64,000 nt of DNA, taken from a phage. The notes under the pieces were generated by a model, which worked only from the letters and a program-made list of their open reading frames with translations, was not told the origin of the DNA and ran no database searches. A program made the translations under genes and the position numbers. Within the stretch, counting starts at the first letter, position 1. Every line of letters starts with the position of its first letter. The stretch lies in the sequence record PV808484.1. The stretch is one strand, 5' to 3'. Shown here one piece after another: positions 46,056-59,609 of this stretch.

Positions 46056-46072
46056 GTGTTTTTATAGGTATG

Positions 46073-46190
46073 CGTATGATAATCATTCTCATTTGTAAAT
46101 GAGAATCATTATCATTTAATTATGTAAGTGATAATCATTCTCAGTAAGAGAATGAGAATCATTAGCAAATGAGAATTTTCTCATTTAGAG
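46073..46190. promoter_or_regulatory. cluster of three operator-like palindromes (Fur-box-like)
   Basis: GATAATCATTCTCATTT-GTA-AAATGAGAATCATTATC; GATAATCATTCTCA..GAGAATGAGAATCATTAGC; AAATGAGAATTTTCTCATTT. Confidence 0.5.
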
Positions 46191-46447
46191 AATAACGCGT
46201 AGGGGTGGTGTTTGTCTCGCGCTCCCGTGTCCCCTCGCCATACAATAAGAATAGCATAACCAACAACAAAAGCAAGCGATTATTTTTATCTTTACATTTC
46301 TTTACAAATTTATTTTAGACGAGCTACCGGCGATCAACCTTCCAACCAGTGTGCCCTGGTATGTTAGCCCCGCCTTTACGCCGTGGGGGTGGCGCTTCCT
46401 CTTCTGTATGTAAAACAGTATAAGCCCGATCCCTGGGCTTGTCAAGA

Positions 46448-46714
46448 TTATTTTTTGTTTTCTTGCCAGGATAGGACACCTAACCAAAAATACATGTCGC
46501 CCCGCGCCCCTGGCGGGATCTTGCTTTCCCCGCCGCCACTGCAAGCCCATAGATAACCATTTGCGAACGTATCAAAATGATCTATTTCTTCCACCTTATG
46601 ATCGCCCAGGTTGAGAACGGTTTCAACCTTTAAGCCCGTTGCGCTTGCTACCTGGTGCACCGTGCCGCCTTGCCAGCCTAATGAGTGCATGAGGTGTAAA
46701 GTAGTATTTGTCAT
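46448..46714 (-). CDS. hypothetical protein inside GC-rich island
   Basis: 88 aa from internal ATG 46714; opposite strand to neighbouring early genes; uncertain. Confidence 0.3.
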   Translation of the reverse strand: MTNTTLHLMHSLGWQGGTVHQVASATGLKVETVLNLGDHKVEEIDHFDTFANGYLWACSGGGESKIPPGARGDMYFWLGVLSWQENKK

Positions 46715-46824
46715 GGTATCGCCCTTTCTTTGATGTGCGCCCTGGTTGGCGCGGTAGAAAGATAATAGCCCCTTTCCTTTATAGATAGCAAGCAAAAAAG
46801 AAATGAAAAAAGATTAAAAAAGGG

Positions 46825-46853
46825 TTGACGTTCCTCACCTGGTAGCGTATTAT
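46825..46853 (+). promoter_or_regulatory. sigma70-like promoter
   Basis: TTGACG -17 bp- TATTAT; followed by strong SD and a 6-codon ORF (46907..46927). Confidence 0.45.
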
Positions 46854-46979
46854 TCATCTTGTCGAGGGGGGCGAGGCACAACGACAATAAACAAAAGGAG
46901 GGCGCAATGCAGGACGGGCAAAGGTGAGGATCTCCACAATCCACCGTCACAATAACATTACTTATAAAAGGTTGATAAC

Positions 46980-47075
46980 GATGATCAAGAAAGAAAACAG
47001 CTTGACGGTTGGAACGATTAACGCTATCATTTTCGCCGTTCCATTTTGGGTTGTAGTAGCGGTTATTATCTTTTA
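46980..47075 (+). CDS. small hydrophobic peptide (31 aa)
   Basis: MIKKENSLTVGTINAIIFAVPFWVVVAVIIF; AAAAGG upstream. Confidence 0.3.
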
Positions 47076-47130
47076 AAAATATTCTTGACAACGTTTTTTA
47101 ATCTGATAAGATGTATCACATAGGGCGGCA
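47075..47130 (+). promoter_or_regulatory. early promoter + 5' leader hairpin cassette
   Basis: TTGACA 47075-80, -10 TAAGAT, leader CACATAGG, hairpin GCGGC-AATAGT-GCCGC, ATG at 47165. Confidence 0.6.
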
Positions 47131-47164
47131 ATAGTGCCGCTCATAACAGAAGAGAGAAATAATC

Positions 47165-47437
47165 ATGGCATCATATAGCGCATCAATGATCGTAATGGGT
47201 ATCACTGGTAAACCTATGCGCGGTGGCGGATCTTTCGCTAACATCAATATTGATGGACGTTTATCCCTGGACGCAGCGATCACAGTGGCACGGGAAACAT
47301 TTAAAAAAGAATGTAATTTCAATAAACAAGATTATCTCGGTTTCGCTATTGAAAAAACCGCGCGATTTGTGGATTATAAAAGCCCGAAAATGATCGACAC
47401 TACACTAAAAGCGAAAGATGTAGCGTTTTTGCTTTAA
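47165..47437 (+). CDS. hypothetical early protein
   Basis: 90-aa ORF downstream of cassette. Confidence 0.5.
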   Translation: MASYSASMIVMGITGKPMRGGGSFANINIDGRLSLDAAITVARETFKKECNFNKQDYLGFAIEKTARFVDYKSPKMIDTTLKAKDVAFLL

Positions 47438-47447
47438 GACTTGACAC

Positions 47448-47508
47448 TGAAAAATAATTTGGTAATATATACCACATAAGGCGGGGAAATGGTTTCCCGC
47501 CAAGCCAT
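47448..47508 (+). promoter_or_regulatory. early promoter + 5' leader hairpin cassette
   Basis: TTGACA, -10 TAATAT, hairpin GGCGGGGAAA-TGG-TTTCCCGCC. Confidence 0.6.
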
Positions 47509-47526
47509 CAAAGAAAGGGTAACACA

Positions 47527-47889
47527 ATGAGCAAGCAAATCAATACTATCATGTTAAACCTGGTATCTTTCCGCGATGACGTGAAAAATCTTTCGCGTGA
47601 TGCAGTGGATGCACGGATCGAAAGCTATCGCACACAGATCGCAACATTACCGTTAAAACGTGATCAACATGCCGCTAATATGATGCTTGATGCTATGATT
47701 AAAAAGATGATTCAATGTGATCTTACTCTGGCTTATGAATATGCTGGCGATCTTTTTGTAACATATAACAAGCCCGTTCCAGGTATGAGCACCACGGAAG
47801 AATTGCATGCCTTAAATCTGCGACAAGATGCATGGGATAACATGCGCCGTGTTATGGTATGGGTAGAAAGCGGTAAAATTTACGAATAA
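47527..47889 (+). CDS. hypothetical early protein
   Basis: 120-aa ORF. Confidence 0.5.
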   Translation: MSKQINTIMLNLVSFRDDVKNLSRDAVDARIESYRTQIATLPLKRDQHAANMMLDAMIKKMIQCDLTLAYEYAGDLFVTYNKPVPGMSTTEELHALNLRQDAWDNMRRVMVWVESGKIYE

Positions 47890-47895
47890 AAACGG

Positions 47896-47949
47896 TTGAC
47901 ATTGCACTAAAACCTGATAAGCTATCTTAAAGCGGGAATAGTTCCCGCT
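47896..47949 (+). promoter_or_regulatory. early promoter + 5' leader hairpin cassette
   Basis: TTGACA, -10 TAAGCT, hairpin AGCGGGAA-TAG-TTCCCGCT. Confidence 0.55.
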
Positions 47950-47967
47950 TACATAGGATAAAACTTT

Positions 47968-48114
47968 ATGAAACAATATGTAATGAGTATTCACACCAAA
48001 AACGGCGCTACTGTTACGACTCCGGCACGGTTTGCACTTGTAAACCGTTGCAAGAGACTAAAACGAGAGCTAAAAAACAACCGTGCAACGGGCTTTAAAC
48101 GCTGGGGAGGATAA
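47968..48114 (+). CDS. small basic protein (48 aa)
   Basis: not in ORF track; ATG 47968 downstream of cassette. Confidence 0.4.
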   Translation: MKQYVMSIHTKNGATVTTPARFALVNRCKRLKRELKNNRATGFKRWGG

Positions 48115-48116
48115 TC

Positions 48117-48389
48117 TTGTTTTTTCTAAAAGTTTTTGATAATGTGATCGCTTTTGAACATGCTGCAACGTTCAACCTGGCGAGATACGCTATCAGGTTT
48201 AAAGATAATGTTTATCCCCGTGCTGGTGGCGGTTACACTATCTTTAATCATCGTAACGCTCAATTAACGGATATAACGAATCCAGATCCTGGAGTGTATC
48301 GCATAGGTTGGCTACCGTCAAAAGACGCGGCAAGCATGTTTAAGGTGTGTAAACTACTAACAGAAGAGGCGAACGAACATGGGGCGTGA
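48117..48389 (+). CDS. hypothetical protein (TTG start)
   Basis: 90 aa; TTG start with GGAGG 9 nt upstream. Confidence 0.35.
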   Translation: MFFLKVFDNVIAFEHAATFNLARYAIRFKDNVYPRAGGGYTIFNHRNAQLTDITNPDPGVYRIGWLPSKDAASMFKVCKLLTEEANEHGA

Positions 48390-48933
48390 ATATGTGATCC
48401 AGTCCTGGGTAAAGCATGATGCTGATGATCCGCGCATAATACCAGATGACATGATCGATCACATGGTAGGGTATAGCGGGGAGCAGATAGGAAATCGAGC
48501 GGCAAAGAGCAACGGTCACACAAAAACGCGATCCGTTCGCCCTGGTTGGCTGGCAAATGGTAACGCTGACATTGCAAGCGCCGCAGATCCAAGCGATGAC
48601 GCTAAAAATAATCCCTTATACAGCATTGATCCGGCTTTTAAGGTGTTAGAAGAGTATCCCGCTAAATTAGCCGCACTAGATAAAGCATATGAAGAAAAGC
48701 GCATGGCATGGACGGTATACAACACCGCTAAAATGGTGCTAGATGCAAAATTGATTAAAGCCCAGGAGAAGATCAATAAACTTGTTACCATAGCGCAAGA
48801 GGAAGACCAGGACGACCAGGAGGAAGAGGAAGAAATCATGCCTACCCTGGAAGAGGAAGAGATCCAGCCATACATGCCGACGGAAGAGGAAAAAAGACAA
48901 GCCCTAAAAAATTATGAAAATTGTGTTGTGTAA
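48379..48933 (+). CDS. hypothetical protein with acidic C-terminal tail
   Basis: 184 aa; E/D-rich C-terminus (EEDQDDQEEEEEIMPTLEEEE). Confidence 0.45.
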   Translation: MGREYVIQSWVKHDADDPRIIPDDMIDHMVGYSGEQIGNRAAKSNGHTKTRSVRPGWLANGNADIASAADPSDDAKNNPLYSIDPAFKVLEEYPAKLAALDKAYEEKRMAWTVYNTAKMVLDAKLIKAQEKINKLVTIAQEEDQDDQEEEEEIMPTLEEEEIQPYMPTEEEKRQALKNYENCVV

Positions 48934-48936
48934 GGC

Positions 48937-49042
48937 TTGACATATGCAAACAAGCCCCGTAATATGTACCACATAAAGCGGGGCAACGCCCCATAAGGTG
49001 AAATAAAAAATCACTTGACACCTGAAATCAGTAAGCTATAAT
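48937..49042 (+). promoter_or_regulatory. tandem early promoters
   Basis: TTGACA/TAATAT with hairpin GGGGC-AAC-GCCCC, then second TTGACA -16- TATAAT. Confidence 0.55.
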
Positions 49043-49079
49043 GCTTATATAGATTGAAACATTACTAAGGAATAAAAGC

Positions 49080-49259
49080 ATGGCTATTATTGCAAAGACT
49101 GAGATCGTAGGTTTAGATTCTATCATCCTGGCATATGAGGAAGCTATAGAAATGTATGTGGTTTCCTATGGTGATTATATCCGTGAATATAAATCTATTG
49201 ATCTAGCTTTTGAATGCTATATTCGCCAGGTCAATAAAGCCTATGATGATTATCGTTAA
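49080..49259 (+). CDS. small hypothetical protein (59 aa)
   Basis: not in ORF track; ATG 49080 with AAGGA upstream. Confidence 0.45.
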   Translation: MAIIAKTEIVGLDSIILAYEEAIEMYVVSYGDYIREYKSIDLAFECYIRQVNKAYDDYR

Positions 49260-49278
49260 AAGTTTTAGTCTTGTGCTA

Positions 49279-49307
49279 TTGACAACGAACGATAGTGCAA
49301 GCATAAT
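49279..49307 (+). promoter_or_regulatory. sigma70-like promoter
   Basis: TTGACA -17- CATAAT. Confidence 0.5.
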
Positions 49308-49354
49308 AACTTTTATCGGGAATACTCCTAACTAATCAAAAGAGATTAAAGACT

Positions 49355-49720
49355 ATGGCTAAAAATATCAATGTTTCTGCTTATGCTACCCTGGCTAACA
49401 CTGCTAAAATTGAACTATCCAGCATTGAAGCGGTACATATTAGCGCCCGTCGCTGGTTTCAAAAGTCTTATGGTAACACTTATTTCTCTTTGATGGTTGA
49501 CGTTGAGATCGGCGGTAAACTGATTGAAGTCGTTAACGTTCCGTTTCACTATGGCTACGGGGATCATTTTGATACCGTTGCCCTAGAAGAGTTTAGCAAG
49601 GTTATCAACCTGGAAGGTAAAGAATTTTCAAATTATGCCTACCTTTCCCGTTTTTGCCGTGATAATGGGATCGCTGTATACAGTCATGCAAGCGATGTTA
49701 AACGTAAAAAAGATTTATAA
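49355..49720 (+). CDS. hypothetical early protein
   Basis: 121-aa ORF. Confidence 0.5.
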   Translation: MAKNINVSAYATLANTAKIELSSIEAVHISARRWFQKSYGNTYFSLMVDVEIGGKLIEVVNVPFHYGYGDHFDTVALEEFSKVINLEGKEFSNYAYLSRFCRDNGIAVYSHASDVKRKKDL

Positions 49721-49726
49721 AAAGCA

Positions 49727-49898
49727 TTGACAGCACGAATAAAAAGCGTAAAATGTTTCATATCAGGACGGGGAACGAAGTAACACCCCGTTAAGTAGCC
49801 CAGGAGTAAGACACACGAAAAACTCCCCTGATAAAATAGTTTGACAATGGTTTCTAATAACGTATAATACTTACATCGAGAGCGGGAACACTTCCCGC
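49727..49898 (+). promoter_or_regulatory. tandem early promoters, each with leader hairpin
   Basis: TTGACA/TAAAAT + ACGGGG..CCCCGT hairpin; TTGACA/TATAAT + GCGGGAA-CAC-TTCCCGC. Confidence 0.55.
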
Positions 49899-49923
49899 CT
49901 CACTGAAAAAAGAGATTAACATC

Positions 49924-50163
49924 ATGGCTAAATCTAAAATGTTCTTAGGTCACAAAAACAAAACTCATTGGAATGTAAGCCTTTGGATCAACAACGATGA
50001 AGGTTTTTATAATCTTGCGCGTGAATTTATCGCAGCTAACACCAATAAGAATGACGCAGCGCGTGATATGATGTTATTTCTTGAAAGTATGGATCAAGAT
50101 AAAACGCCAGACGGATTCAAGTTCAGTAAAACCGCGATCCGTGCCGCTATGGTTGGAATGTAA
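49924..50163 (+). CDS. hypothetical early protein
   Basis: 79-aa ORF. Confidence 0.5.
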   Translation: MAKSKMFLGHKNKTHWNVSLWINNDEGFYNLAREFIAANTNKNDAARDMMLFLESMDQDKTPDGFKFSKTAIRAAMVGM

Positions 50164-50258
50164 AGGAGACATAAAAATGAAACATCGTTCGACCTATCTC
50201 ACAAAACGTTTTAGCTTAGATCATAAATTGGGCTATTACGGAAGAAATAGAAAATAAT

Positions 50259-50317
50259 TTGACAACGTTTTAAATTAGTGTAAGATATATCACATAGGGC
50301 GGGAAATGGTTTCCCGC
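50259..50317 (+). promoter_or_regulatory. early promoter + 5' leader hairpin cassette
   Basis: TTGACA, -10 TAAGAT, hairpin GCGGGAAA-TGG-TTTCCCGC. Confidence 0.6.
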
Positions 50318-50340
50318 CAAATCAAAGAAAGGTTATCATT

Positions 50341-50568
50341 ATGGCTATCATTATTGTTCGCGTATCCGGTACGGTTGGAAGCTCCCAGGTAGTAGCAGTT
50401 ATCACAGAGAAGAAAGGGGATGATCTTCACTCTTCCTTGAATAGTTGGGCGGTCGCTAATTTTGGTCAGTGGTCGAGCGTCGAGTATATCGAATCCTACC
50501 AGGTGCCGACGATTAGCCTAACCGATTTAAATGTTGATCGCTTGTTGTGCCTGGATGGATTAAACTAA
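50341..50568 (+). CDS. hypothetical early protein
   Basis: 75-aa ORF. Confidence 0.5.
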   Translation: MAIIIVRVSGTVGSSQVVAVITEKKGDDLHSSLNSWAVANFGQWSSVEYIESYQVPTISLTDLNVDRLLCLDGLN

Positions 50569-50576
50569 AAATAATC

Positions 50577-50632
50577 TTGACAAGATAACTAAAATCAGTA
50601 AAATGTAATGCATAGGGCGGCAATAGTGCCGC
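50577..50632 (+). promoter_or_regulatory. early promoter + 5' leader hairpin cassette
   Basis: TTGACA, -10 TAAAAT, hairpin GCGGC-AATAGT-GCCGC. Confidence 0.6.
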
Positions 50633-50655
50633 TCATAGTAAGAGAGATTATCAAA

Positions 50656-50871
50656 ATGGCTAATATCCGCACACTGTTAAAAAATGCAAGTCAAGTTTTA
50701 TTTTCAGATGACGAGTATTTCAACAAAGACATTACAGGCGTGAAAAATTTAAAAGACGTGAAGGATGTTATCGGTATCCGTGGATCTTTACGTAAAGGTG
50801 ACATATACGGTAACAAGGTGCAATATAAACTGTCAAAAGATTATGATTTTACTTTGACAATTATCAATTAA
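50656..50871 (+). CDS. hypothetical early protein
   Basis: start moved from track 50608 (inside leader hairpin) to ATG 50656. Confidence 0.5.
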   Translation: MANIRTLLKNASQVLFSDDEYFNKDITGVKNLKDVKDVIGIRGSLRKGDIYGNKVQYKLSKDYDFTLTIIN

Positions 50872-50882
50872 GGGATCACAAA

Positions 50883-51041
50883 ATGAAAACTTGCCAATGT
50901 GGTAAAAAGTCTATCTCTGGTTTAAAACGTGGCGTTGCTCTTTGTCAATATCACTATAACGCTCAAACGTGGGGTAAGCAGTGGGCGGATCAGATGGAAG
51001 AGGCAAAGAAAGAAAATATAAAAGTAGTTGCAAAGAAATAA
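50883..51041 (+). CDS. small Cys-containing protein (52 aa)
   Basis: not in ORF track; CQCG...CQYH. Confidence 0.4.
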   Translation: MKTCQCGKKSISGLKRGVALCQYHYNAQTWGKQWADQMEEAKKENIKVVAKK

Positions 51042-51066
51042 AAATAAAGTAAACTGTATTCATCAA

Positions 51067-51088
51067 GGCGGTGGAATAGCCCACCGCC
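51067..51088 (+). other. GC hairpin in intergenic leader
   Basis: GGCGGTGG-AATAGC-CCACCGCC, no -35 upstream. Confidence 0.4.
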
Positions 51089-51112
51089 TAACAAAGAGAA
51101 GAGGAAAACATC

Positions 51113-51283
51113 ATGATCACTTTCGCTACCCGTGAAGCCGCTCGCAACGTTGCACGTAAAGTTAACGCCGCCAACCTGGGCGCTACGTTTAAAGCCCCGG
51201 TGAAAGATGAGTCAGGAAAATGGATCTTCCCTGGTCTGCGTCACGCTGATAAGCTGGGAACATTAACGTTAAAAAATAAATAA
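51113..51283 (+). CDS. small hypothetical protein (56 aa)
   Basis: not in ORF track; ATG 51113, GAGGAAAA upstream. Confidence 0.4.
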   Translation: MITFATREAARNVARKVNAANLGATFKAPVKDESGKWIFPGLRHADKLGTLTLKNK

Positions 51284-51290
51284 GATCCGC

Positions 51291-51349
51291 TTGACAGTAG
51301 CATGATTTATAAGTAAAGTAACAACAACGGCGGGAAATGGTTTCCCGCC
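51291..51349 (+). promoter_or_regulatory. early promoter + 5' leader hairpin cassette
   Basis: TTGACA, -10 TAAAGT, hairpin GCGGGAAA-TGG-TTTCCCGC. Confidence 0.6.
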
Positions 51350-51369
51350 ATCAATAAAGAGATAAGATT

Positions 51370-51729
51370 ATGAAATCAGTAAAAGCAATCAAAACTTACA
51401 TTGTATCGGCTATTTCTTTTGAAGGTACTACAACCGAAAAAGAAAAAATCACCGAACTGATGCGCCGTTTTAATTCTGAATACTGGTATCCCGATAATCA
51501 AAAACGTTACAATTATAACGTGATCAAGGCGATAGCCTCATGGTTACAAGGTTTACCGTCAGACATTAACATCGCCTTTGATTATAACGAGATCGATCAC
51601 TTGTTAATTGAATGGAAGTACATAAAAGAAACAAGCAAAGAAACAACCGTTACCCGTGAGCGGGAAAATTATTGGTTATATATTGCAAGCATGATCGTAA
51701 TCCTGGCAAAACAGCATAACGTGGCGTAA
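51370..51729 (+). CDS. hypothetical early protein
   Basis: 119-aa ORF. Confidence 0.5.
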   Translation: MKSVKAIKTYIVSAISFEGTTTEKEKITELMRRFNSEYWYPDNQKRYNYNVIKAIASWLQGLPSDINIAFDYNEIDHLLIEWKYIKETSKETTVTRERENYWLYIASMIVILAKQHNVA

Positions 51730-51744
51730 TTAAGAGGAAGAAAC

Positions 51745-51882
51745 ATGAACGCATCACAGCAGATCGAAAAATTCAACCGCAGCAAGGCGCGTAAAGATTG
51801 GAACGAAGAGATCACCAAAAAAGGCGACAAGCGGAACAAAACAAAAAGAGATCGCAGCACAAAAAGACACTGGAACGAATAA
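51745..51882 (+). CDS. small basic protein (45 aa)
   Basis: not in ORF track; AAGAGGAAG upstream. Confidence 0.35.
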   Translation: MNASQQIEKFNRSKARKDWNEEITKKGDKRNKTKRDRSTKRHWNE

Positions 51883-51887
51883 CAAAA

Positions 51888-51912
51888 AAGGGCGCAATAA
51901 GCGCCCTTTTAG
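51888..51912 (+). terminator. rho-independent terminator
   Basis: AAGGGCGC-AATAA-GCGCCCTT then TT. Confidence 0.6.
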
Positions 51913-52000
51913 CTTATATAGAGGCTTGTTACCCATAGGCAATGGTAACGCCAGGGCAAGCCTATAAACAACGTTAGACGGCTTTACAGGAGCTTTAAAA

Positions 52001-52183
52001 ATGAGATTAGAAGAAATAAGCAAGGCACTAGCCCAGGGGCAAAGGTTATGCGCCAGATATCGTGATCAATATGGCTTCATAACTAGCGGCGTGATCCTGG
52101 GGATTGAAGGCAATAAGATTTTTATTGACACGTTGAAAAACGTTGTATATAGTGACAATATAATCTCAATAAAACATATATGA
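52001..52183 (+). CDS. hypothetical protein
   Basis: 60-aa ORF. Confidence 0.4.
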   Translation: MRLEEISKALAQGQRLCARYRDQYGFITSGVILGIEGNKIFIDTLKNVVYSDNIISIKHI

Positions 52184-52191
52184 GGCAAGAA

Positions 52192-52593
52192 ATGAAAAAC
52201 TTATTGATCGCTGGTTTACTCTCTTTTGGTATGGTTGGAACATCTAGCGCGGCGATATCCTCCACAGTAGCAGAATTAAGCGCCGTTGATGCAATGGAAA
52301 ACGTCATGCTTATTAATAATGCGATCCCCGATGAAATCATGGAGGATTCACACATGATCGCTTATGGTGCTGTTACACAACTAACGGCAAAAATAGATAA
52401 ATCTATTGTTAATGGCTTAAATGAAGATGTACCATGTGAAATTATTACCAGTGTGCTTACTACTCAAAATTTTACGCCGTGGTTAAAAAGTATTCAAAAA
52501 GTACACAGTACAGCCGCAGATCGTAGCAATGAAAAACTAGTGTCAGCACTTGCAACGTATACCCTAGCAAAATGCACCGAGATAAAAGATTGA
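52192..52593 (+). CDS. secreted hypothetical protein
   Basis: start moved to ATG 52192 (GAGG upstream); signal peptide MKNLLIAGLLSFGMVGTSSAA. Confidence 0.5.
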   Translation: MKNLLIAGLLSFGMVGTSSAAISSTVAELSAVDAMENVMLINNAIPDEIMEDSHMIAYGAVTQLTAKIDKSIVNGLNEDVPCEIITSVLTTQNFTPWLKSIQKVHSTAADRSNEKLVSALATYTLAKCTEIKD

Positions 52594-52618
52594 CAACATA
52601 GAAAGCACGTTATAAGAT
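52590..52618 (+). promoter_or_regulatory. sigma70-like promoter
   Basis: TTGACA ... TATAAGAT upstream of 52641 gene. Confidence 0.45.
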
Positions 52619-52640
52619 ACACACAACAAAGGAGAACTAC

Positions 52641-52943
52641 ATGAACGGCATAGCTAAAACGTTTTTTCTTTTTTCTGGTGTAAATGATCCATCAATAAAA
52701 GTCGATAGTGTAAAAGAAAACAATACTATCACCGCTAAATTGTTTCAAGATGAAACAAATAACGTGCTAATCATTAATCTTAAAGAAATAACTAAAGGTT
52801 ATTATACTATTGCTTACCATGCAATCTATCATGCTGGTACTAGTGAGGAAGTGCAAACAAGCAACAACGAAAGCGCGGCGCTACCTGGTGATCTGGTGCT
52901 GGGCGTTATCAGTTTAATTGTCAATGATTTTTTTAAGGAGTAA
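52641..52943 (+). CDS. hypothetical protein
   Basis: 100 aa; AAGGAGAA upstream. Confidence 0.45.
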   Translation: MNGIAKTFFLFSGVNDPSIKVDSVKENNTITAKLFQDETNNVLIINLKEITKGYYTIAYHAIYHAGTSEEVQTSNNESAALPGDLVLGVISLIVNDFFKE

Positions 52944-52947
52944 AACC

Positions 52948-53043
52948 ATGCCCTATTTACATTTATTTTTCGGTATCTTATTGACAGGATCTTTTTTCTT
53001 CTGTATGCTTGTTTCTATTGTAAACCACGTTTTAAGACATTAA
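52948..53043 (+). CDS. small hydrophobic peptide (31 aa)
   Basis: not in ORF track; AAGGAG upstream. Confidence 0.3.
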   Translation: MPYLHLFFGILLTGSFFFCMLVSIVNHVLRH

Positions 53044-53052
53044 GGAAACAGC

Positions 53053-53172
53053 ATGAAAATTATTCCCGTACAATATAGCGTAATAAATCCAGCATACGAG
53101 GAAGGAAGGAAAACAAGCATGGCTTTATGTTGTATTGCTACTATAGCCATGTTGTTATGCATTGTGTTTTAA
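53053..53172 (+). CDS. small peptide with hydrophobic C-terminus (39 aa)
   Basis: not in ORF track; AAGGAAACAGC upstream. Confidence 0.3.
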   Translation: MKIIPVQYSVINPAYEEGRKTSMALCCIATIAMLLCIVF

Positions 53173-53201
53173 TAGGTTTTATAGTTGTACGCTTTAAAGG
53201 C

Positions 53202-53253
53202 TTGACAATTTTTTGTTATGCTTTAAACTATATCTTGAAAACGGCAAAGGCCG
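53202..53253 (+). promoter_or_regulatory. early promoter + short leader hairpin
   Basis: TTGACA, -10 TAAACT, hairpin CGGC-AAAG-GCCG. Confidence 0.5.
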
Positions 53254-53272
53254 CAAACAAAAGGGTAAAATT

Positions 53273-53596
53273 ATGAAATCTGTGATCGGTGTTTATTTGG
53301 ATAACTCTGATTTTTTCTATCATCGCGCTCGTTTCCTTGATGCGATTGAAATGATAGAATCAGGCTTTAAAGAGTATCGCCTTGCACATGATGACCTGGA
53401 AGCATTACAGGGCAATAGTGTTTTTACATTGCAAGCTAAAGCACTATGCAAAAGCCGGATCGACATTGCGAGCAAAAAGATAGAACGCGGCATGTCCTGG
53501 TTGCGCACCGCAGAAATCAACATGGGGCAATGGTACGGCGAAAACTTAGAAAATAAACATGCTTTTGTCAATGTAGAAAATATTGAAGATTATTGA
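53273..53596 (+). CDS. hypothetical early protein
   Basis: start moved from track 53213 (inside promoter) to ATG 53273. Confidence 0.5.
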   Translation: MKSVIGVYLDNSDFFYHRARFLDAIEMIESGFKEYRLAHDDLEALQGNSVFTLQAKALCKSRIDIASKKIERGMSWLRTAEINMGQWYGENLENKHAFVNVENIEDY

Positions 53597-53658
53597 TTGA
53601 CAGCACACCTAACGGGTAGTATATTGTATCTCATAGAGCGGGGAAATGGTTTCCCCGC
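53597..53658 (+). promoter_or_regulatory. early promoter + 5' leader hairpin cassette
   Basis: TTGACA, -10 TATATT, hairpin GCGGGGAAA-TGG-TTTCCCCGC. Confidence 0.6.
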
Positions 53659-53678
53659 CATCAATAAAGAGATAAGCT

Positions 53679-53963
53679 ATGAAGATCACAAAAGCACTTT
53701 CCAACTATGCAGCACGTCGCGGATTATGTTTAACCGTTGAAAATTTAGGGAAAGAAGATTTTTTGTGCTTTTGGGAGCTTGAGAATGATAATGAGTGGAT
53801 CTTCTCTTATTCTATCTGCGAAGATCAAAACGGTTGTTTATTAACCTGGCGCGGTAATATCTATCTACCGGAAGAAATCAAAGAAGAATTACCAGGCACG
53901 ATCATGACTGAGAAACAGCTTAAGGAAGTGATCAATTTTGTAGGGCAAAACATTAAAAAATAA
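53679..53963 (+). CDS. hypothetical early protein
   Basis: 94-aa ORF. Confidence 0.5.
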   Translation: MKITKALSNYAARRGLCLTVENLGKEDFLCFWELENDNEWIFSYSICEDQNGCLLTWRGNIYLPEEIKEELPGTIMTEKQLKEVINFVGQNIKK

Positions 53964-53964
53964 T

Positions 53965-54021
53965 TTGACAGCAGAAAAACAACGTAGTAAAGTTTATCAC
54001 ATAGGGCGGCAATAGTGCCGC
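53965..54021 (+). promoter_or_regulatory. early promoter + 5' leader hairpin cassette
   Basis: TTGACA, -10 TAAAGT, hairpin GCGGC-AATAGT-GCCGC. Confidence 0.6.
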
Positions 54022-54044
54022 TCATAACAGAAGAGAAACAAATC

Positions 54045-54215
54045 ATGATCCCGACTATGTTTTATGTATCGCGCAAAGGTCACAATATTTTTTGGTCTGA
54101 AGATTTAAATGAAGCCATGACGTTTGCCCGTGATCGTGTTGCTATCGGTGGCGTTAACATTACTGTAACCGATGAAAATGGCATTGAATACTATAACGGC
54201 GACGATGAAGAGTAA
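54045..54215 (+). CDS. hypothetical early protein (56 aa)
   Basis: start moved from track 54015 to ATG 54045. Confidence 0.45.
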   Translation: MIPTMFYVSRKGHNIFWSEDLNEAMTFARDRVAIGGVNITVTDENGIEYYNGDDEE

Positions 54216-54260
54216 TTAACAAGGCGGGGAGTATTCCCGCCGTCAATAAAGGATAATATC

Positions 54261-54398
54261 ATGAAAACTTTCAACGCAACAGCATCAACAATTGGTTATA
54301 TTATCACCGTGCAAGCTATTGATCTAGTAGCTGCAACAAACAAGATTAAAAACATGATCCCTGTAGGCAGTGATTTTTCCGTTTGGGAAGTAAAATAA
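54261..54398 (+). CDS. small hypothetical protein (45 aa)
   Basis: not in ORF track; preceded by GGCGGG..CCCGCC hairpin and AAAGGA. Confidence 0.4.
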   Translation: MKTFNATASTIGYIITVQAIDLVAATNKIKNMIPVGSDFSVWEVK

Positions 54399-54401
54399 AT
54401 C

Positions 54402-54463
54402 TTGACAGTGATTTGTTATTTGATAAGATGTACTACGTAGGGCGTGGCAATAAGGCAACGCCC
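54402..54463 (+). promoter_or_regulatory. early promoter + 5' leader hairpin cassette
   Basis: TTGACA, -10 TAAGAT, hairpin GGGCGT..ACGCCC. Confidence 0.55.
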
Positions 54464-54484
54464 CACATCAGAAAGGGAAAGATT

Positions 54485-54721
54485 ATGACTATAGCAACAG
54501 TATTAACCGCCGTTAAAACCGCCGAATCATCCGGCTTGCATGTTGAGATTATAGATCAACCAGGTGGCGATCTCCTTGTCCAGGTTTACCCGCCGAAAGT
54601 AGGGGATGATTATTATTGGTGCTATTCTGATACGTTCGAACAAGTAGACACGAAAGCGATCACGGCTTTTATTTTAAAAGCTATTGAAGAAAATAACTTT
54701 CATTATAACATCAATCAATAA
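54485..54721 (+). CDS. hypothetical early protein
   Basis: start moved from track 54383 to ATG 54485 (AAAGGGAAAG upstream). Confidence 0.5.
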   Translation: MTIATVLTAVKTAESSGLHVEIIDQPGGDLLVQVYPPKVGDDYYWCYSDTFEQVDTKAITAFILKAIEENNFHYNINQ

Positions 54722-54763
54722 ACCATAAGCGGGGCAGTAACGCCCACTAATGAGGGTAAAATC

Positions 54764-54868
54764 ATGTTAGAGAAAATTTTCACGGTTGTAGTAGTGGGCC
54801 TGGCGTTATCGGTTGGAGTGGTTGCAACTATGGCTAACATGATTCTATCTTCTCACGGTATTGGATAA
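54764..54868 (+). CDS. small hydrophobic peptide (34 aa)
   Basis: not in ORF track; GAGGGTAAAATC upstream. Confidence 0.3.
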   Translation: MLEKIFTVVVVGLALSVGVVATMANMILSSHGIG

Positions 54869-54878
54869 GGTGAATCAA

Positions 54879-55094
54879 ATGATCACGAATAAGACAGGTA
54901 AAACAGAATTTTTACGCGGCTTGCAAATAGGTAAACCTGAGATCTGGCATTGCACTAAATCCGCGCATAATGAAATGAAAGATTTTACCGCTACTTTACA
55001 ACGTGTTAAAATATCTATCACACAGAAAAAAGCCTTGTTAGTAGTAGAAAACGAGATCCCGCAAACTATTATTATTGTCGAGCGTACAGCATGA
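54879..55094 (+). CDS. hypothetical protein
   Basis: start moved from TTG 54861 to ATG 54879. Confidence 0.45.
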   Translation: MITNKTGKTEFLRGLQIGKPEIWHCTKSAHNEMKDFTATLQRVKISITQKKALLVVENEIPQTIIIVERTA

Positions 55095-55477
55095 AAACAG
55101 AAATCATTATTGAAATCATCAACGGTTATAAAGAAGCCTTTATTTTTGCTGAATCCGCCAGGGATCATGAAGGTAATTTTATTGATAACTTGACTGATTA
55201 TGATTTTTCAGATCAAGCCCATCAGCGGATCATTCATGACGTAGCGGCTTATTGTGATGCCAATGATGCCGCTATCTCTGAGGCAATGAGCGACGGCGCA
55301 ACAGCCAACCAGATCGGGAATGATTTACATTTTACCCGTAATAGTCACGGCGTAGGCTTTTGGGATCGCCCTGAAATATACACTACTAACACCGCCAACC
55401 GCTTAACTAATGCAGCTAAATTGATGCCATCGGTGCATGCTTACATTGGTGAAGATAATTTGATTTATATTGAATAA
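55091..55477 (+). CDS. hypothetical protein
   Basis: 128-aa ORF. Confidence 0.5.
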   Translation: MKTEIIIEIINGYKEAFIFAESARDHEGNFIDNLTDYDFSDQAHQRIIHDVAAYCDANDAAISEAMSDGATANQIGNDLHFTRNSHGVGFWDRPEIYTTNTANRLTNAAKLMPSVHAYIGEDNLIYIE

Positions 55478-55483
55478 AAAGTA

Positions 55484-55541
55484 TTGACACCGATCCCCAA
55501 TATGGTACTATTTACCACGTAGGCGGGAAATGGTTTCCCGC
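55484..55541 (+). promoter_or_regulatory. early promoter + 5' leader hairpin cassette
   Basis: TTGACA, -10 TACTAT, hairpin GCGGGAAA-TGG-TTTCCCGC. Confidence 0.6.
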
Positions 55542-55565
55542 CAGGTAATCAAAAAGGTAAATACT

Positions 55566-55955
55566 ATGCGCAACCTGGTTTCTGTTTCTAACGTTGAAAA
55601 ATTTCAATCTTTACAGGGTATCGTTAACAACGTAGCGCCTTTTTTAGTCAACGGCTTGATTGCAAAGATGAAAAATAAACATCATGCGGCATGGTCTGCT
55701 TACTGCTTTGATAATGATGAAAAAGCGGCTGAAATGATGTTAAATATGCTGTTAGACAGTGTAGAATCATCTTTACCGGAAAACATCGCAGAAGAGATCA
55801 CCTATCGTTATAATATGGCGATCACTTACCAGGAGGTTGCGCAATTTAATATGATGGACGATGACGAACAACAGGATCAGGAAATTTTCTGGGAGTATGC
55901 AGATCGTCAATCGGCTTTTGATGAAAAGTTAGCGATGTATTATAACGAATATTAA
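55566..55955 (+). CDS. hypothetical early protein
   Basis: start moved from track 55530 to ATG 55566. Confidence 0.5.
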   Translation: MRNLVSVSNVEKFQSLQGIVNNVAPFLVNGLIAKMKNKHHAAWSAYCFDNDEKAAEMMLNMLLDSVESSLPENIAEEITYRYNMAITYQEVAQFNMMDDDEQQDQEIFWEYADRQSAFDEKLAMYYNEY

Positions 55956-55970
55956 TACACGGTAAAAGAA

Positions 55971-55996
55971 AGGGGCGCACTAAGCGCCCTTTTTTG
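55971..55996 (+). terminator. rho-independent terminator
   Basis: GGGGCGC-ACTAA-GCGCCCT followed by TTTTTTG. Confidence 0.65.
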
Positions 55997-56341
55997 TATT
56001 CTTTTTTCACAATGGAAGCGACACGTAAAGAATAGGCGTAAAAGGTGGCGTAAAACCATCTAAAACCGACTGTAACCGCTTAAACAAGGCAGGGATGATT
56101 AATCCCCTTACCAGGATGAAAAAGCTGTTAGAGAGCTATTCATAGCGTTTAAAGCACATAGGAAATAATTTGCTTTTTATCTTGCCTTTTATCCTGCTTT
56201 TGATTATTATTATGGAACGGGCGGCACCTGGGGACAGGGGAAGATAATCACCGGAAGATCCCGCTATATATTGATAGCTAATACCTATTAAACAACAAAA
56301 CATCAAAGGGATAAACTATCAAATCTTTACAATCCTACCTA

Positions 56342-56400
56342 TTGACACACGATCACCCTTATACTAATATGTATCCCGTAGGCGGGAAATGGTTTCCCGC
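56342..56400 (+). promoter_or_regulatory. early promoter + 5' leader hairpin cassette
   Basis: TTGACA, -10 TAATAT, hairpin GCGGGAAA-TGG-TTTCCCGC. Confidence 0.6.
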
Positions 56401-56419
56401 TTGATATAGGAATCATACC

Positions 56420-56725: not shown

Positions 56726-57109
56726 ATGAGCAATATCATCAACCTGGCAGCGACTGTAAACGGTAAAGACTTTAACGGCGCTGTAGACCGTGATCCTATG
56801 TGGTGCTTATCAGTGTTTAAAGGCGATCTGGTTGAAGTTAGAACAACCGAAGGGTATAGCGATGATTATAAATGCGAGATCCATTTACATAACTGGTACA
56901 CGGGGAAAACTTATGCGCTGAATCACGCGTTTATCGGGAAAATTGAATATCGCGAGATGATCGACGATGAAACGGGGCAAGATTTTAGTGATTATGTTTA
57001 TATTCGTTCAGAAACATTAGCCGAACGTTTGATCGAGAAAATGAAAGCAAAAAATAAAATTAATTTAGCTCATTGGCTTGATATAACAAATGATCCGGCT
57101 TACAAGTAA
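56726..57109 (+). CDS. hypothetical protein
   Basis: 127-aa ORF. Confidence 0.5.
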   Translation: MSNIINLAATVNGKDFNGAVDRDPMWCLSVFKGDLVEVRTTEGYSDDYKCEIHLHNWYTGKTYALNHAFIGKIEYREMIDDETGQDFSDYVYIRSETLAERLIEKMKAKNKINLAHWLDITNDPAYK

Positions 57110-57123
57110 ATAACATTTCATAC

Positions 57124-57150
57124 CAGGGCGCACAAAGCGCCCTTTCTTTT
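57124..57150 (+). terminator. rho-independent terminator
   Basis: GGGCGC-ACAAA-GCGCCC followed by TTTCTTTTT. Confidence 0.65.
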
Positions 57151-57354
57151 TACCTAAATAAAGATGATAGCTTTTACCTATCAAAAACATTCACCGAAAA
57201 AAGTGAATAGATCGCGGTATCGAGCTAATCAAGGAGCAGATGAACAACCATACCATGAAGATCATAAGGCGCTTACAACGTGTTTTAAACCGCTTATTTT
57301 TAATTTCTCCATGTAACTATCTGGCAAAAACAGCCTTTTTCGTGTCTTTCCTCT

Positions 57355-57435
57355 TAAGTGATAATCATTCTTATTTATAGCTGATTATTTATGCAATAAA
57401 CTGCATAATGCAATAATGATAATCATTCTTAACTT
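57355..57435. promoter_or_regulatory. pair of Fur-box-like sites
   Basis: GTGATAATCATTCTTA at about 57358 and AATGATAATCATTCTTA at about 57414. Confidence 0.45.
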
Positions 57436-57439
57436 ATGA

Positions 57440-57780
57440 CCATCTAACCTATAAAATAATAAGTTATCTAACTAAATTAAAGCTAATTATTTCACCTTTA
57501 TTTATAACTTACTGTTACTATCTCATTGATAACCTTATATTAAACAACAATAACTAATATAAATCATTACTAAGCTAAATATAATCTATCTAACCTTTAA
57601 AACTATAACTATAATCTATCGAATTGTTGCACAAAGTAACTATTAAATTGTTAGTAACATTACTAAATAATTCATATCCTATCTATTTATGATCTAATCT
57701 TTACTTTCCTATCTATTACCTAAATAATCCTATCATACAGTTACCATTTCATGTAATAATCATTTCATACAATAACTATA
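57440..57780. repeat. AT-rich iteron-like short repeats
   Basis: recurring CTATCTAACCT / CTATCTAT / ATAACTATAA words in 340 bp without coding potential. Confidence 0.45.
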
Positions 57781-57837
57781 ACAAGAAATATAATTCGCAA
57801 GCGTATCATTAGCAGCCTATGCCGGACACATAGGCGG

Positions 57838-57985
57838 CTAATAATAACGCAACTACACACCCCACATAATAACCATCACCGATAGTTATTATTTGTGCTT
57901 ATGTAGCTTGCAACAATTGCAAGCGCAACAATATACATGGTATATTGTATCCCTTACATTGTTGCGGTGCGTTATTATTAGCTAA
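57838..57985. repeat. long-range inverted repeat with internal palindrome
   Basis: GCTAATAATAACGCAAC ... GTTGCGGTGCGTTATTATTAGC ~110 bp apart; internal CTTGCAACAATTGCAAG. Confidence 0.45.
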
Positions 57986-58282
57986 TGTTTGGAACATTGG
58001 CTATAATATAAGCTAAATAATAAGCTATTCAATAATAAACATAATGAATAATGACACTGATGATCATAATGCGCCACCTTCCAGGGGGCGCTATGTGAAC
58101 ACAAAGAAATCTTTCTTGTCAAGAAAAATATTAACACTATTGCGCAAAATTATTTATGTCTGAATAGATGATTTTTCATACTATTGTTATTATTTATCGG
58201 CCCTAACTATTGCCTATTTGTTGAGCCTACTTTCTTAAAAGCGCAATAAATCAGAATTATCTTGATTTTTAGGGTGTTTTAT

Positions 58283-58305
58283 AGTATAGAAAATATGCAA
58301 ATGAT
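58283..58305. promoter_or_regulatory. Fur-box-like site (17/19 match to GATAATGATAATCATTATC)
   Basis: GCAAATGATAATCATTATC read directly. Confidence 0.5.
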
Positions 58306-58482
58306 AATCATTATCAGCTATCTTCCACGGGTGGCACTATTTCACGCAGGATCATTTCATTTGGCAAGGTGTATATAGATGTTTAGACTTGCCAAGCCAT
58401 TGATTTACTTAGAATTTATCTGTTTTGTTGTGAGTAGTACCTTTCTTGCTCAGAAAATAATCAAAAGTCTTATAAGTCATTG

Positions 58483-58515
58483 AATGATAATGCAAATGAT
58501 AATTATTCTCATTGA
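58483..58515. promoter_or_regulatory. overlapping Fur-box-like sites
   Basis: GAATGATAATGCAAATGATAATTATTCTCATTGAT. Confidence 0.45.
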
Positions 58516-58632
58516 TATTTGAGGGGGACGGTCGGCAGAAATCGGGGGGCGCTGAAAATCGCGTTAAGCACCTCTCGCAAGCGAGCAGTATTTTGCGGCA
58601 AGTTATTGATATTATTGGCTTTACGCTTATGG

Positions 58633-58730
58633 AAAGGGGGTGTGTCGAAATAAATCGGGTATACCGGAAAATTTTTGTGGCATAGATATTTATTTGTCTA
58701 TATTATGTACAAAGGGGTGTGTTAAAAATA
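58633..58730 (+). repeat. two copies of AAAGGGGTGTGT-containing ~35-bp direct repeat upstream of paralogue array
   Basis: AAAGGGGGTGTGTCGAAATAAATCGGGTATACC and AAAGGGGTGTGTTAAAAATATTAGGTATATA; third core copy at 45661. Confidence 0.45.
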
Positions 58731-58872
58731 TTAGGTATATATAGAATAATTGATAGGGAAATCCTATACTAATTCCTCCATTAATGATGTTTCTATGTTG
58801 CTGTTCTTGTAACAGATGAAAAGACGCTGTATGATGTGTAGCATGAAACGTAAATTTATAAAGGAGTCTGAT

Positions 58873-59241
58873 ATGTGTGTTCCTCTTAGCAGTCCTCTGC
58901 TGTTAGAATTTTACAAAGCATGGATGGAAGATCATTCCTCAATGCATCGTGAGAATGTTGGTTTGTGTAATTGCCTTATGGATTACCTGGCAACCACTAT
59001 GTCAAAGAAAAAGCCTACGGAAGAAGATATAGAATATTTCAAGATGGTTCGTAGCAAAACGCTGAAAGAGATGAAACTGCAATTCACGTGTGCTGGGCTA
59101 TCCTCCTTCCTACCCTTTAATTATGATCTTCTATGTTATGAAGATGAAGGTAAGACACATTCTTGCCATACCAACCCAAAGAGATTGCAGTGGGTGAAAG
59201 ATCGTATTGCCGATTCATGTTTGGTGTTAGGGGGGTGGTAA
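58873..59241 (+). CDS. paralogue family protein 1 (Cys/His small protein)
   Basis: start moved to ATG 58873 (AAGGAG upstream); FYKAW..GLCNCL.DY and HTNPKRLQWVKDRI. Confidence 0.5.
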   Translation: MCVPLSSPLLLEFYKAWMEDHSSMHRENVGLCNCLMDYLATTMSKKKPTEEDIEYFKMVRSKTLKEMKLQFTCAGLSSFLPFNYDLLCYEDEGKTHSCHTNPKRLQWVKDRIADSCLVLGGW

Positions 59242-59609
59242 TGAAAAGTAATATTCCGTTGAGTAGTGCAGCTTTAATACGATTCTATAAAGCATGGATT
59301 GCCAACCATCCGGCAATGAATCGCACAACGAGTGGCTTGTGTGGTTGTCTGGTAGATTATGTAGATGATTTTGTTGGCGAGGTAACTAGAGAAGAAGATA
59401 AAAGATGGCGTGATCGTTTGTTGGATAGTTTGAAATACGAAATGAGGAAACAATTTACATGTGCAGGACTGGACTACAATCTTCCGTTCAATGTAGATTG
59501 CATGGATTACCTTTCAGAGTGTATAGACTTGGCGTGTCATACCAACACGTTACGTCTTCAATGGGTGAAAGACAGAATCGAAGATGCAAATAATGCTTGC
59601 ATTGAATAG
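59241..59609 (+). CDS. paralogue family protein 2
   Basis: start ATG 59241 overlapping upstream stop (TAATG); same motifs. Confidence 0.5.
   Translation: MKSNIPLSSAALIRFYKAWIANHPAMNRTTSGLCGCLVDYVDDFVGEVTREEDKRWRDRLLDSLKYEMRKQFTCAGLDYNLPFNVDCMDYLSECIDLACHTNTLRLQWVKDRIEDANNACIE

Follow-up and report, generated by a model that had tools for sequence, protein, structure and literature searches.

In the record of phage phi92 (FR775895), both chromosome ends are annotated, the features PHI92_DTR-L (1–343) and PHI92_DTR-R (148270–148612) being described as 'left/right end direct terminal repeat'. Phage BME3 has a 342-bp repeat derived with PhageTerm (PMC12210895), the rV5-like phage LL12 carries a 459-bp non-permuted repeat within its own non-coding gap (PMC6658697), and new members of Stephanstirmvirinae are reported to 'terminate with direct terminal repeats' (PMC12695924). 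The non-coding gap of rV5 itself spans 2.6 kb (PMC3606486). In T7-type phages, the repeat must be duplicated during processing, with a hairpin intermediate (PMC4281155). Here we describe the 1.7-kb gene-free gap at positions 57110–58815 of a 64,000-nucleotide stretch of phage DNA (PV808484.1), the whole of which is referred to as the window. An earlier note on this DNA had proposed that the gap is a replication origin or a packaging/regulatory region. Our analysis indicates that it is very probably the collapsed junction of the right and left ends of a linear virion chromosome, i.e., a concatemer junction, and that this junction is most likely the region in which the DNA is packaged and cut.

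Like the gap, the junctions of T7 and T3 are gene-free and contain an exact terminal repeat that is short (at most a few hundred bp), with promoter-bearing DNA immediately on its right and, in the unique DNA immediately on its left, a hairpin or inverted repeat. Further details of T7/T3 junction processing are reportedly given by Chung and Hinkle (1990) and Fujisawa and Morita (1997). The window phage differs in that it is a myovirus of 146–150 kb, its repeat is twice as long and a five-helix 177-nt element takes the place of the single inverted repeat; the sequences are not homologous. Nothing in the window suggests a T7-like promoter, a pause site or a phage RNA polymerase, no dedicated search for them having been made. 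The lambda cos region (cosN–cosB, with R sites for the small terminase and an IHF site) is similar in that the cut site has short repeats on one side and consensus sites for host architectural proteins, which here are two IHF-like and four Fur-like sites. However, lambda has 12-nt cohesive ends instead of a 343-bp repeat, and the role of the host factor has been shown in lambda but is a guess here.

Phages rV5 and LL12 (Vequintavirus) are related myoviruses with a large gap that is free of open reading frames (ORFs) and holds the terminal repeat (PMC3606486, PMC6658697); weak Fur-like boxes and short repeats of its own are also present in this gap. They differ in that their gap lies between convergent transcripts and shows no detectable sequence homology to the one described here; a covariance model of the 177-nt element found no match in the rV5 gap. 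In rV5 (NC_011041), positions 105480–105640 contain dense ACTGTT(T/C)AC repeats and weak Fur-like boxes (GAGAATAGTTATCA), and this part of the gap is the one expected to correspond to the LL12 terminal repeat.

Probable chromosome ends within the gene-free gap

A megablast search with 57000–58900 matched 86 phage records; in 48 of them, the match extends over 80% or more of the query, mostly with 93–96% identity, and the closest is phage EmilieFrey (96.3%). Judging from its sequence, the window phage is a Justusliebigvirus, a phi92-like myovirus (Stephanstirmvirinae) of E. coli. The ORF on the left of the gap (56726–57109), which matches the Pfam family Phage_30_8 (Gp30.8-like, 3e-29), is the homologue of phi92 gp248, the final gene in the phi92 record, and the genes on the right are homologues of phi92 gp002–gp007. 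The gap thus coincides with the point at which the phi92 record is opened, following the last right-end gene and preceding the first left-end gene, which starts at 58816.

Both ends of the phi92 record can be aligned with the gap. The start of PHI92_DTR-L (AGCCTACTTTC; first bases AGCCTACTTTCTTAAAAGCG) corresponds to the window from 58224 onward, and the final bases of the record (...GAAAATCGCGTTA) stop at 58566. The sequence is ~94% identical to the phi92 ends, and the bases at the boundaries (AGCCTAC... and ...CGCGTTA) are identical. In a BLAST search for distant matches, the phi92 and BME3 records stopped at query positions 1457 and 1456, i.e., at 58566 and 58565 of the window. The BME3 record opens with the reverse complement of ...GAAAATCGCGTT, and at base 342 it has the complement of the A in AGCCTAC. 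Given these end coordinates, two separately submitted records concur within 1 nt. The homologous CGCGTT is also the end point of PQ360875, the record of a Klebsiella phage. The repeat is unique in the window; most database records are circular assemblies opened at an arbitrary point (e.g., Eryne), and this is why it is seen once, inside the window. The comparison with genome termini that the earlier note had suggested therefore places the ends of the virion chromosome inside the gap. The features that define these ends are as follows, with a slash marking the boundary within a motif.

58150–58223, plus strand: variable zone just left of the repeat, with one to four copies of TATTTGTTG; in other genera, one to three modules of a GC hairpin followed by (A/T)TGTTGAGCAC
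58220–58226, plus strand: left boundary motif GTTG/AGC; the virion left end is predicted to start at 58224, and the 342-bp repeat of BME3 ends at the same base
58224–58566, plus strand: direct terminal repeat of 343 bp, assigned by homology to the ends of phi92 and BME3; a single copy here, in which the two virion copies would have been collapsed in assembly
58563–58569, plus strand: right boundary motif GTTA/AGC, in the same register and orientation as the left motif; the virion right end is predicted to stop at 58566

From left to right, the first ~1.1 kb of the gap is unique right-end DNA; the 343-bp repeat follows, and a further ~250 bp, unique to the left end, leads up to 58816. The phi92 junction has the same arrangement in ~94% identical DNA, with a 343-bp repeat, identical boundary bases, the Gp30.8-like gp248 gene on the left and an array of small genes on the right. 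It differs in the copy number of TATTTGTT before the left boundary, in an indel in the AT-rich zone and in the first left-end gene, and its record is opened at the ends, whereas the repeat of the window is internal and single.

The left boundary reads ...TATTTGTTG/AGCCTAC and the right one ...ATCGCGTTA/AGCACC; in Phapecoctavirus, they read ATGTTG/AGCAC and CGCGTTA/AGCAC. In 11 phages from at least three lineages, both boundaries carry the motif GTTR/AGC in the same register, and two of the five plus-strand copies of GTTRAGC in the 64 kb are the boundaries of the repeat. Some phages have additional copies of the boundary motif upstream, and copies of ATGTTGAGCAC lie upstream in nepoznato and FKP3. 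The number of TATTTGTTG copies before the left boundary is one here, two in phi92 and four in BME3, and the hairpin-containing modules occur one to three times in DE16, KP2025, FKP3 and nepoznato. Because repeated motifs beside a cut site are the usual look of terminase recognition sites, we infer that these variable modules are candidate recognition repeats for the terminase.

A separate observation concerns the FKP3 record (PP895363, 1–2878), in which the terminal-repeat sequence restarts after the post-repeat DNA and the Fur-like matches recur at a 500-bp offset; the repeat region is apparently present twice in this record, in tandem or through mis-joining.

Conserved blocks and transcription signals

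The gap contains no gene that we could recognize. The longest ORFs in 57110–58815, in which the earlier note had seen none of meaningful length, are 57 (TTG start), 51, 50 and 46 amino acids, and none is conserved. Two ATG-initiated ORFs (57164–57316 and 57240–57380) were considered as genes and rejected, being broken in the Phapecoctavirus and Klebsiella relatives, and the gap is left empty in the careful annotations of phi92, Paula, ukendt, nepoznato and phiWec188. Scans for tRNA and tmRNA found none, and a tandem-repeat finder returned only weak AT-rich arrays. The gap is AT-rich, as had been noted, with a GC content of 0.318 compared with 0.377 for the whole window and 0.219 within 57431–57800.

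Within the genus, the gap is 94–100% identical, whereas the coding DNA on its right is 58–76% identical; variation is concentrated at 57701–57750 (indels) and 58151–58250. Gaps of 1.3–1.7 kb with conserved blocks in the same order are present in Phapecoctavirus, in Klebsiella and Citrobacter phages and in metagenomes. The order is the terminator at 57125–57152, 57153–57260, the first pair of Fur-like boxes, the hairpin element, the left boundary with box 3, box 4 with the right boundary, and the post-repeat modules; six blocks are conserved across genera. In addition to the features at the ends and those listed in the next section, the gap holds the following.

57125–57152, plus strand: intrinsic terminator (GGGCGCACAAAGCGCCC and a T-run) found by a terminator scan; it closes the rightward early unit after the Gp30.8-like gene (56726–57109) and is kept in the Phapecoctavirus and Klebsiella relatives
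57153–57260: conserved non-coding block with a small hairpin (ATTCAC..GTGAAT); 80–83% identical to the Klebsiella and Phapecoctavirus relatives, the overlapping ORFs not being conserved
57431–57800: AT-rich spacer (22% GC) with 'iteron-like' words; its length and sequence differ between genera, and it is the only sub-zone that cannot be aligned between them
58040–58150: conserved block (95–98% within the genus) with a degenerate Fur-box unit (58051–58087), a GC hairpin (58071–58091) and a perfect palindrome, TTTCTTG-T-CAAGAAA (58112–58126)
58393–58405, minus strand: IHF-consensus-like site WATCAANNNNTTR in the middle of the repeat; its core CCATTGATTTA is conserved across genera
58599–58611, minus strand: second IHF-consensus-like site, ~35 bp right of the repeat, with a core conserved across genera
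58634–58672, plus strand: module 1, A(A/G)GGGGTGTGTC-N-GGGTATACCGGAAAAT, a promoter-like or protein-binding element that is better conserved, in all lineages, than any other right of the repeat
58711–58750, plus strand: module 2, AAAGGGGTGTGT-N22-AATAAT, which gives TTAAAA-N17-AATAAT in a sigma-70 scan; candidate promoter for the gene at 58816

The two IHF-consensus matches in the gap compare with 0.3 expected. Near-identical intrinsic terminators (GGGCGCAnTAAGCGCCC and a T-run) are reused along the rightward early region, at 51880–51910, 55963–55993 and 57116–57146.

The window has 20 consensus promoters (TTGACA-N16-18-TAnnAT; 1.3 expected), of which 12 are directed rightward between 42.1 and 56.4 kb; about half form cassettes with a leader consisting of CACATAGGGCGG and a hairpin, and none is located beyond 56.4 kb. 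The early cassette, which occurs six to eight times in 47074–56413, consists of TTGACA-N17-TAAGAT, CACATAGGGCGG and a GC hairpin (GGCGGGAAATGGTTTCCCGCC or GCGGCAATAGTGCCGC), and its conserved transcript start and hairpin suggest a shared leader or operator. On the other side of the gap, the repeat GGGGTGTGT, two copies of which the earlier note had pointed out, occurs at 58637 (where it reads AAGGGGGTGTGT) and 58714, and we found a third, inverted copy at 57855–57863; all three copies in the 64 kb (0.15 expected) lie within the gap. The two direct copies form modules with the architecture GGGGTGTGT-N21/22-(G/A)A(A/T)AAT (58637–58672 and 58714–58750). In the linear infecting chromosome, the left-end paralogue genes do not lie downstream of the cassette promoters, and the only conserved promoter candidates upstream of them are the two modules and a weak arrangement inside the repeat. 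Given that no consensus promoter lies beyond 56.4 kb and that the left end has only these candidates, the gap is the boundary of two differently driven gene sets. The earlier note had likewise described it as separating cassette-driven early genes from a paralogue array, and the repeated cassette is indeed found upstream and the paralogues downstream. Its term 'regulatory hub' fits the terminator, the Fur-like operators and the two unusual promoter-like modules, but not the consensus sigma-70 promoters, none of the 20 being located here.

The first two left-end ORFs (58816–59609 and onward) are clear cysteine-rich paralogues that share the motif LSS..L..FYKAW....H..M.R...GLC.CL.DY...FTCAGL. 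Neither has a Pfam match, and the left-end paralogue ORFs vary far more among relatives than the adjoining non-coding DNA. Unannotated 'Campylobacter phage' records (MG065639, MG065645, MG065656, MG065689 and MG065650), with C. jejuni given as host, are ~94.5% identical to the region and are probably mislabelled or contaminant Justusliebigvirus/Phapecoctavirus genomes.

Fur-like boxes and the 177-nt multi-hairpin element

We searched for Fur boxes with the 7-1-7 consensus TGATAATNATTATCA, allowing at most two mismatches, and with the classical 19-mer GATAATGATAATCATTATC. The former matched nine sites in the window (0.82 expected), four of which are in the gap, where the earlier note had seen several; the latter matched five (0.03 expected).

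57359–57373: Fur-box-like site 1, TGATAATCATTCTTA; a box is kept at the homologous position in other genera
57417–57431: Fur-box-like site 2, TGATAATCATTCTTA; a second match overlaps it at an offset of 6 bp
58302–58316: Fur-box-like site 3, TGATAATCATTATCA, 79 bp inside the left boundary; 15/15 matches to the 7-1-7 consensus and 17/19 to GATAATGATAATCATTATC
58497–58511: Fur-box-like site 4, TGATAATTATTCTCA, 55 bp inside the right boundary and preceded by the conserved TAAGTCATTGAAT

Site 3 lies directly downstream of a conserved TTGATT-N17-TA.. arrangement (58263–58291). The boxes persist at homologous positions in phages of E. coli, Klebsiella and Citrobacter while their flanks diverge. In a complete relative of 148 kb, 11 sites with at most two mismatches were found (2.1 expected), and eight of them, including every site with zero or one mismatch, are located in two non-coding places: the junction and an array of four to five boxes corresponding to 46077–46180 of the window.

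Binding of host Fur to these candidate sites is the simplest reading. E. coli, Klebsiella and Citrobacter probably share the Fur consensus. The sites resemble E. coli Fur operators in their matches of up to 15/15 and 17/19 and in their tandem arrays, and the overlapping matches offset by 6 bp at boxes 2 and 3 are of the kind seen in genuine Fur clusters, which show 3- or 6-bp phasing and overlapping shifted matches (PMC2189734). They differ from those operators in being predicted sites of a virulent phage, two of which lie within a terminal repeat and none of which sits on a recognizable -35/-10. Inspection by eye and a scan of both strands gave no convincing case of a sigma-70 promoter overlapping a box.

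Alternatively, the boxes may owe their likeness to the Fur consensus to chance and be operators of a DNA-binding protein that the phage encodes (for instance, an early repressor or the small terminase), or they may simply be AT-rich DNA of the type bound by H-NS. The repeated unit exceeds a Fur box, forming a 37-nt family that ends in GGGG, the boxes overlap no recognizable promoters, and two of them are at fixed distances within the terminal repeat, where packaging proteins should bind. However, the closeness of the best matches to the E. coli consensus, the 6-bp shifted overlaps, the presence of another four to five boxes, likewise arrayed, in an intergenic region unrelated to this one and the retention of the box sequence across phages of the three host genera argue for Fur, and we regard a non-Fur origin of the boxes as possible but somewhat unlikely.

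The unique right-end DNA contains a conserved multi-hairpin element of 177 nt, which ends 238 bp left of the repeat. The gap thus combines a short exact repeat with an inverted repeat in the adjoining unique DNA, as a T7-type junction does.

57809–57985, strand unassigned: conserved multi-hairpin element with five helices, P1–P5
57815–57821/57829–57835: P1
57837–57851/57968–57982: P2, a long-range helix that encloses P3–P5
57866–57877/57881–57892: P3
57906–57913/57917–57924: P4, an invariant palindrome
57924–57932/57958–57966: P5, with a genus-specific inner hairpin

Two parts of this element had been recognized in the earlier note and are confirmed here: a long-range inverted repeat, whose arms (57837–57851 and 57968–57982) are complementary at 15/15 positions and 116 nt apart (about 110 bp in the note), and an internal palindrome, GCTTGCAAcaaTTGCAAGC at 57906–57924, which is invariant in 18 relatives. 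The fold of 57809–57985 has z-scores of -6.2 on the plus strand and -7.9 on the minus strand relative to shuffles. For homologues, we also scanned IMG/VR (4 loci) and metagenomes (18 loci, 8 of them true homologues). RNAalifold on 15 distinct sequences gave 45 pairs, with 99% of the cells paired and 13 pairs showing compensatory double changes (53 cells), a level of pairing and covariation that none of 500 shuffles reached; sliding the partners by one to three columns as a control reduced pairing to 21–46%. The result was the same with 18 sequences and with the eight further homologues from metagenomes (97.6–99% of cells paired and 53–55 double-change cells over two alignments). P1, P2 and P3 covary, whereas P4 and the unpaired CAACTACAC do not vary at all, suggesting that they are recognized in a sequence-specific manner. 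By covariance model, the element is present once per genome, and it is 97–100% conserved within the genus; the inverted GGGGTGTGT copy at 57855–57863 lies inside it. A search of the window against Rfam 15 gave no match at the gathering score, and a permissive search gave only chance-level matches in the region (E at least 0.55).

The compensatory changes are nearly all strict Watson–Crick swaps, including G-C to C-G. G-U cells number three on the plus strand and seven on the minus strand in the 15-sequence alignment, with a few more on the plus strand in the 18-sequence alignment, and no conserved promoter or terminator flanks the element on either strand. With few, strand-split wobbles and no such signals, the element may act either as DNA hairpins or as RNA. 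If the element were a structured non-coding RNA gene, it could, for example, encode a regulator whose single-stranded ACACACCCC loop pairs with GGGGUGUGU in left-end transcript leaders. Covariation of this kind is typical of functional RNA, the folding energies are very low on both strands, the two GGGGTGTGT copies right of the repeat are exactly complementary to the loop ACACACCCC, and the 7-nt core (ACACCCC and GGGGTGT) is kept in Phapecoctavirus. Against this, there is no Rfam family, no conserved promoter or terminator lies on either side, the near-strict Watson–Crick swaps with few G-U pairs suit DNA hairpins equally well, and the complementarity of loop and leader is lost in Tr1 and several metagenomic lineages that retain the element. 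We therefore consider an RNA gene unlikely, albeit not far-fetched. Covariation between the ACACCCC loop and the GGGGTGT leader itself, which holds in two genera and fails in Tr1 and these metagenomic lineages, was not used as evidence.

At 57827–57837, the 3' arm of P1 (CACATAGGCGG) equals a variant of the early-cassette leader motif (CACGTAGGCGG, 55516), with the same A/G variation in relatives; this identity may be due to chance or to a shared binding site.

Origin-like features and a model of end processing

The origin part of the earlier proposal found no positive support. If the gap were a replication origin, its AT-rich zone would unwind, an initiator would bind to the repeated words or to the ATTAGC/TTGCAAGC palindromes, and priming would take place at a site marked by the hairpins. 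The zone at 57431–57800 has only 22% GC, the strongly conserved hairpins and the invariant palindrome would suit a protein–DNA assembly site, and the secondary origins of T7-type phages lie near their ends. The 'iteron-like' words of the earlier note, its weakest item, are present and modestly enriched: CTATCTA, ATCTAAC and CCTATC occur three times each in this zone, more often than expected from a Markov-1 model (P ~0.0005–0.003, the words having been chosen after looking). However, they are irregularly spaced and not conserved across genera, whereas the flanking blocks are. The gap contains no DnaA boxes and no Chi site, GATC is under-represented, and no initiator gene is adjacent. GC skew, a check proposed in the earlier note, was rejected as an indicator of the origin, since it tracks the direction of transcription in the window; the authors of the rV5 study likewise concluded that GC skew follows transcription (PMC3606486). 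Moreover, the other non-coding region (45.8–46.2 kb) has three 62-bp tandem repeats and resembles an origin no less than the gap does, and the physical ends already account for the gene-free and conserved state of the gap. An origin in the gap is thus improbable, and of the alternatives in the earlier proposal it is the packaging/regulatory region, which agrees with the mapped ends of relatives, that is supported.

The second gene-poor region (45636–47165) has three tandem ~62-bp repeats (AAATTATTTAAAGTTTTT...ATTTTGAAAATGAAAAGTTCAA, ~45850–46050), four to five Fur-like sites at 46077–46180 and then a GC-rich stretch, and it is the sole other place in the genome with strong Fur-like boxes. Within it, ~125 nt at 46289–46414 are 73–85% conserved in 263 phage records, mostly unannotated, including phages of Klebsiella, Pectobacterium, Cronobacter and Raoultella. 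The segment 46285–46425 folds no better than shuffles, and the minus-strand ORFs that overlap it have no Pfam match.

That the gap is a functionless AT-rich spacer between gene blocks, with motifs matching by chance, is hardly credible: AT-rich DNA does yield many consensus-like matches, and the count of promoter-like sequences is barely above that of shuffles (21 versus 14.7), but this is already contradicted by the within-genus conservation of 94–100%, higher than that of the coding DNA on the right, by six blocks kept across genera, by motif counts far exceeding those of shuffles and by the covariation.

With the gap read as a chromosome-end junction, a model of its processing can be outlined. 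From homology to the mapped ends, packaged DNA would start at 58224 and stop at 58566 of the next unit, so that the 343-bp segment would be present at both virion ends. Replication would produce concatemers carrying this junction arrangement, the terminase would cut at the two same-orientation copies of GTTR/AGC that bound the repeat, and the repeat would then be duplicated by DNA synthesis, as in T7-type phages. The 1.1 kb left of the repeat, with its variable TTTGTTG or ATGTTGAGC repeats, conserved blocks and 177-nt element, would be the right-end recognition and processing region, in which the hairpin element may act as folded DNA or possibly as RNA. The 250 bp right of the repeat would supply the sole promoter-like modules available to the left-end paralogue genes. 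The four Fur-box look-alikes, two of them within the repeat, would most simply bind host Fur-Fe2+ and render transcription or protein assembly at the ends sensitive to iron.

Several points weigh against this reading. The ends of the window phage are deduced from relatives that are 94–96% identical, and the recognition of GTTR/AGC, the upstream repeats or the hairpin element by the terminase is a candidate role only. The Fur assignment is based only on consensus matching, with no clear sigma-70 promoter overlapping any box. The distance between the element and the repeat differs among phages (~250–450 bp), and a boundary motif that keeps one orientation at the two ends of the repeat is more in keeping with a pair of double-strand cuts than with nicks on opposite strands, as in the simplest model of duplication. 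A more far-reaching proposal is that Fur-Fe2+ binds the boxes of the repeat, the two upstream boxes and the 46.1-kb array, either as an iron switch for the promoter-poor left-end genes or as an architectural or titrated factor, and that the 177-nt element represents a new class of folded cis-element for terminal-repeat processing in Stephanstirmvirinae. This proposal is speculative and, in our view, quite unlikely.

A junction of this kind is already known, the terminal repeat having been annotated in phi92. In the literature that we searched, we found no account of Fur boxes, packaging signals or transcriptomes in this group of phages, and three features appear to be undescribed there: the cut motif shared by the boundaries, the five-helix element with its covariation and the Fur-like operators with their conservation. 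Recognition of the gap as the junction of chromosome ends, and not as an obvious origin, explains why it is gene-free and removes a false lead, and it tells annotators where phi92-like genomes should be opened. It also provides candidate cis-elements (GTTR/AGC, the variable repeats, the folded element and the Fur-like operators) for a group of phages used in therapy cocktails and represented in the BASEL collection. If Fur does bind these sites, this would be the first case, in the literature searched, of a virulent coliphage whose end-proximal genes or packaging are linked to the iron status of the host. Such a link would be relevant to the application of these phages in the gut and urinary tract, which are poor in iron.

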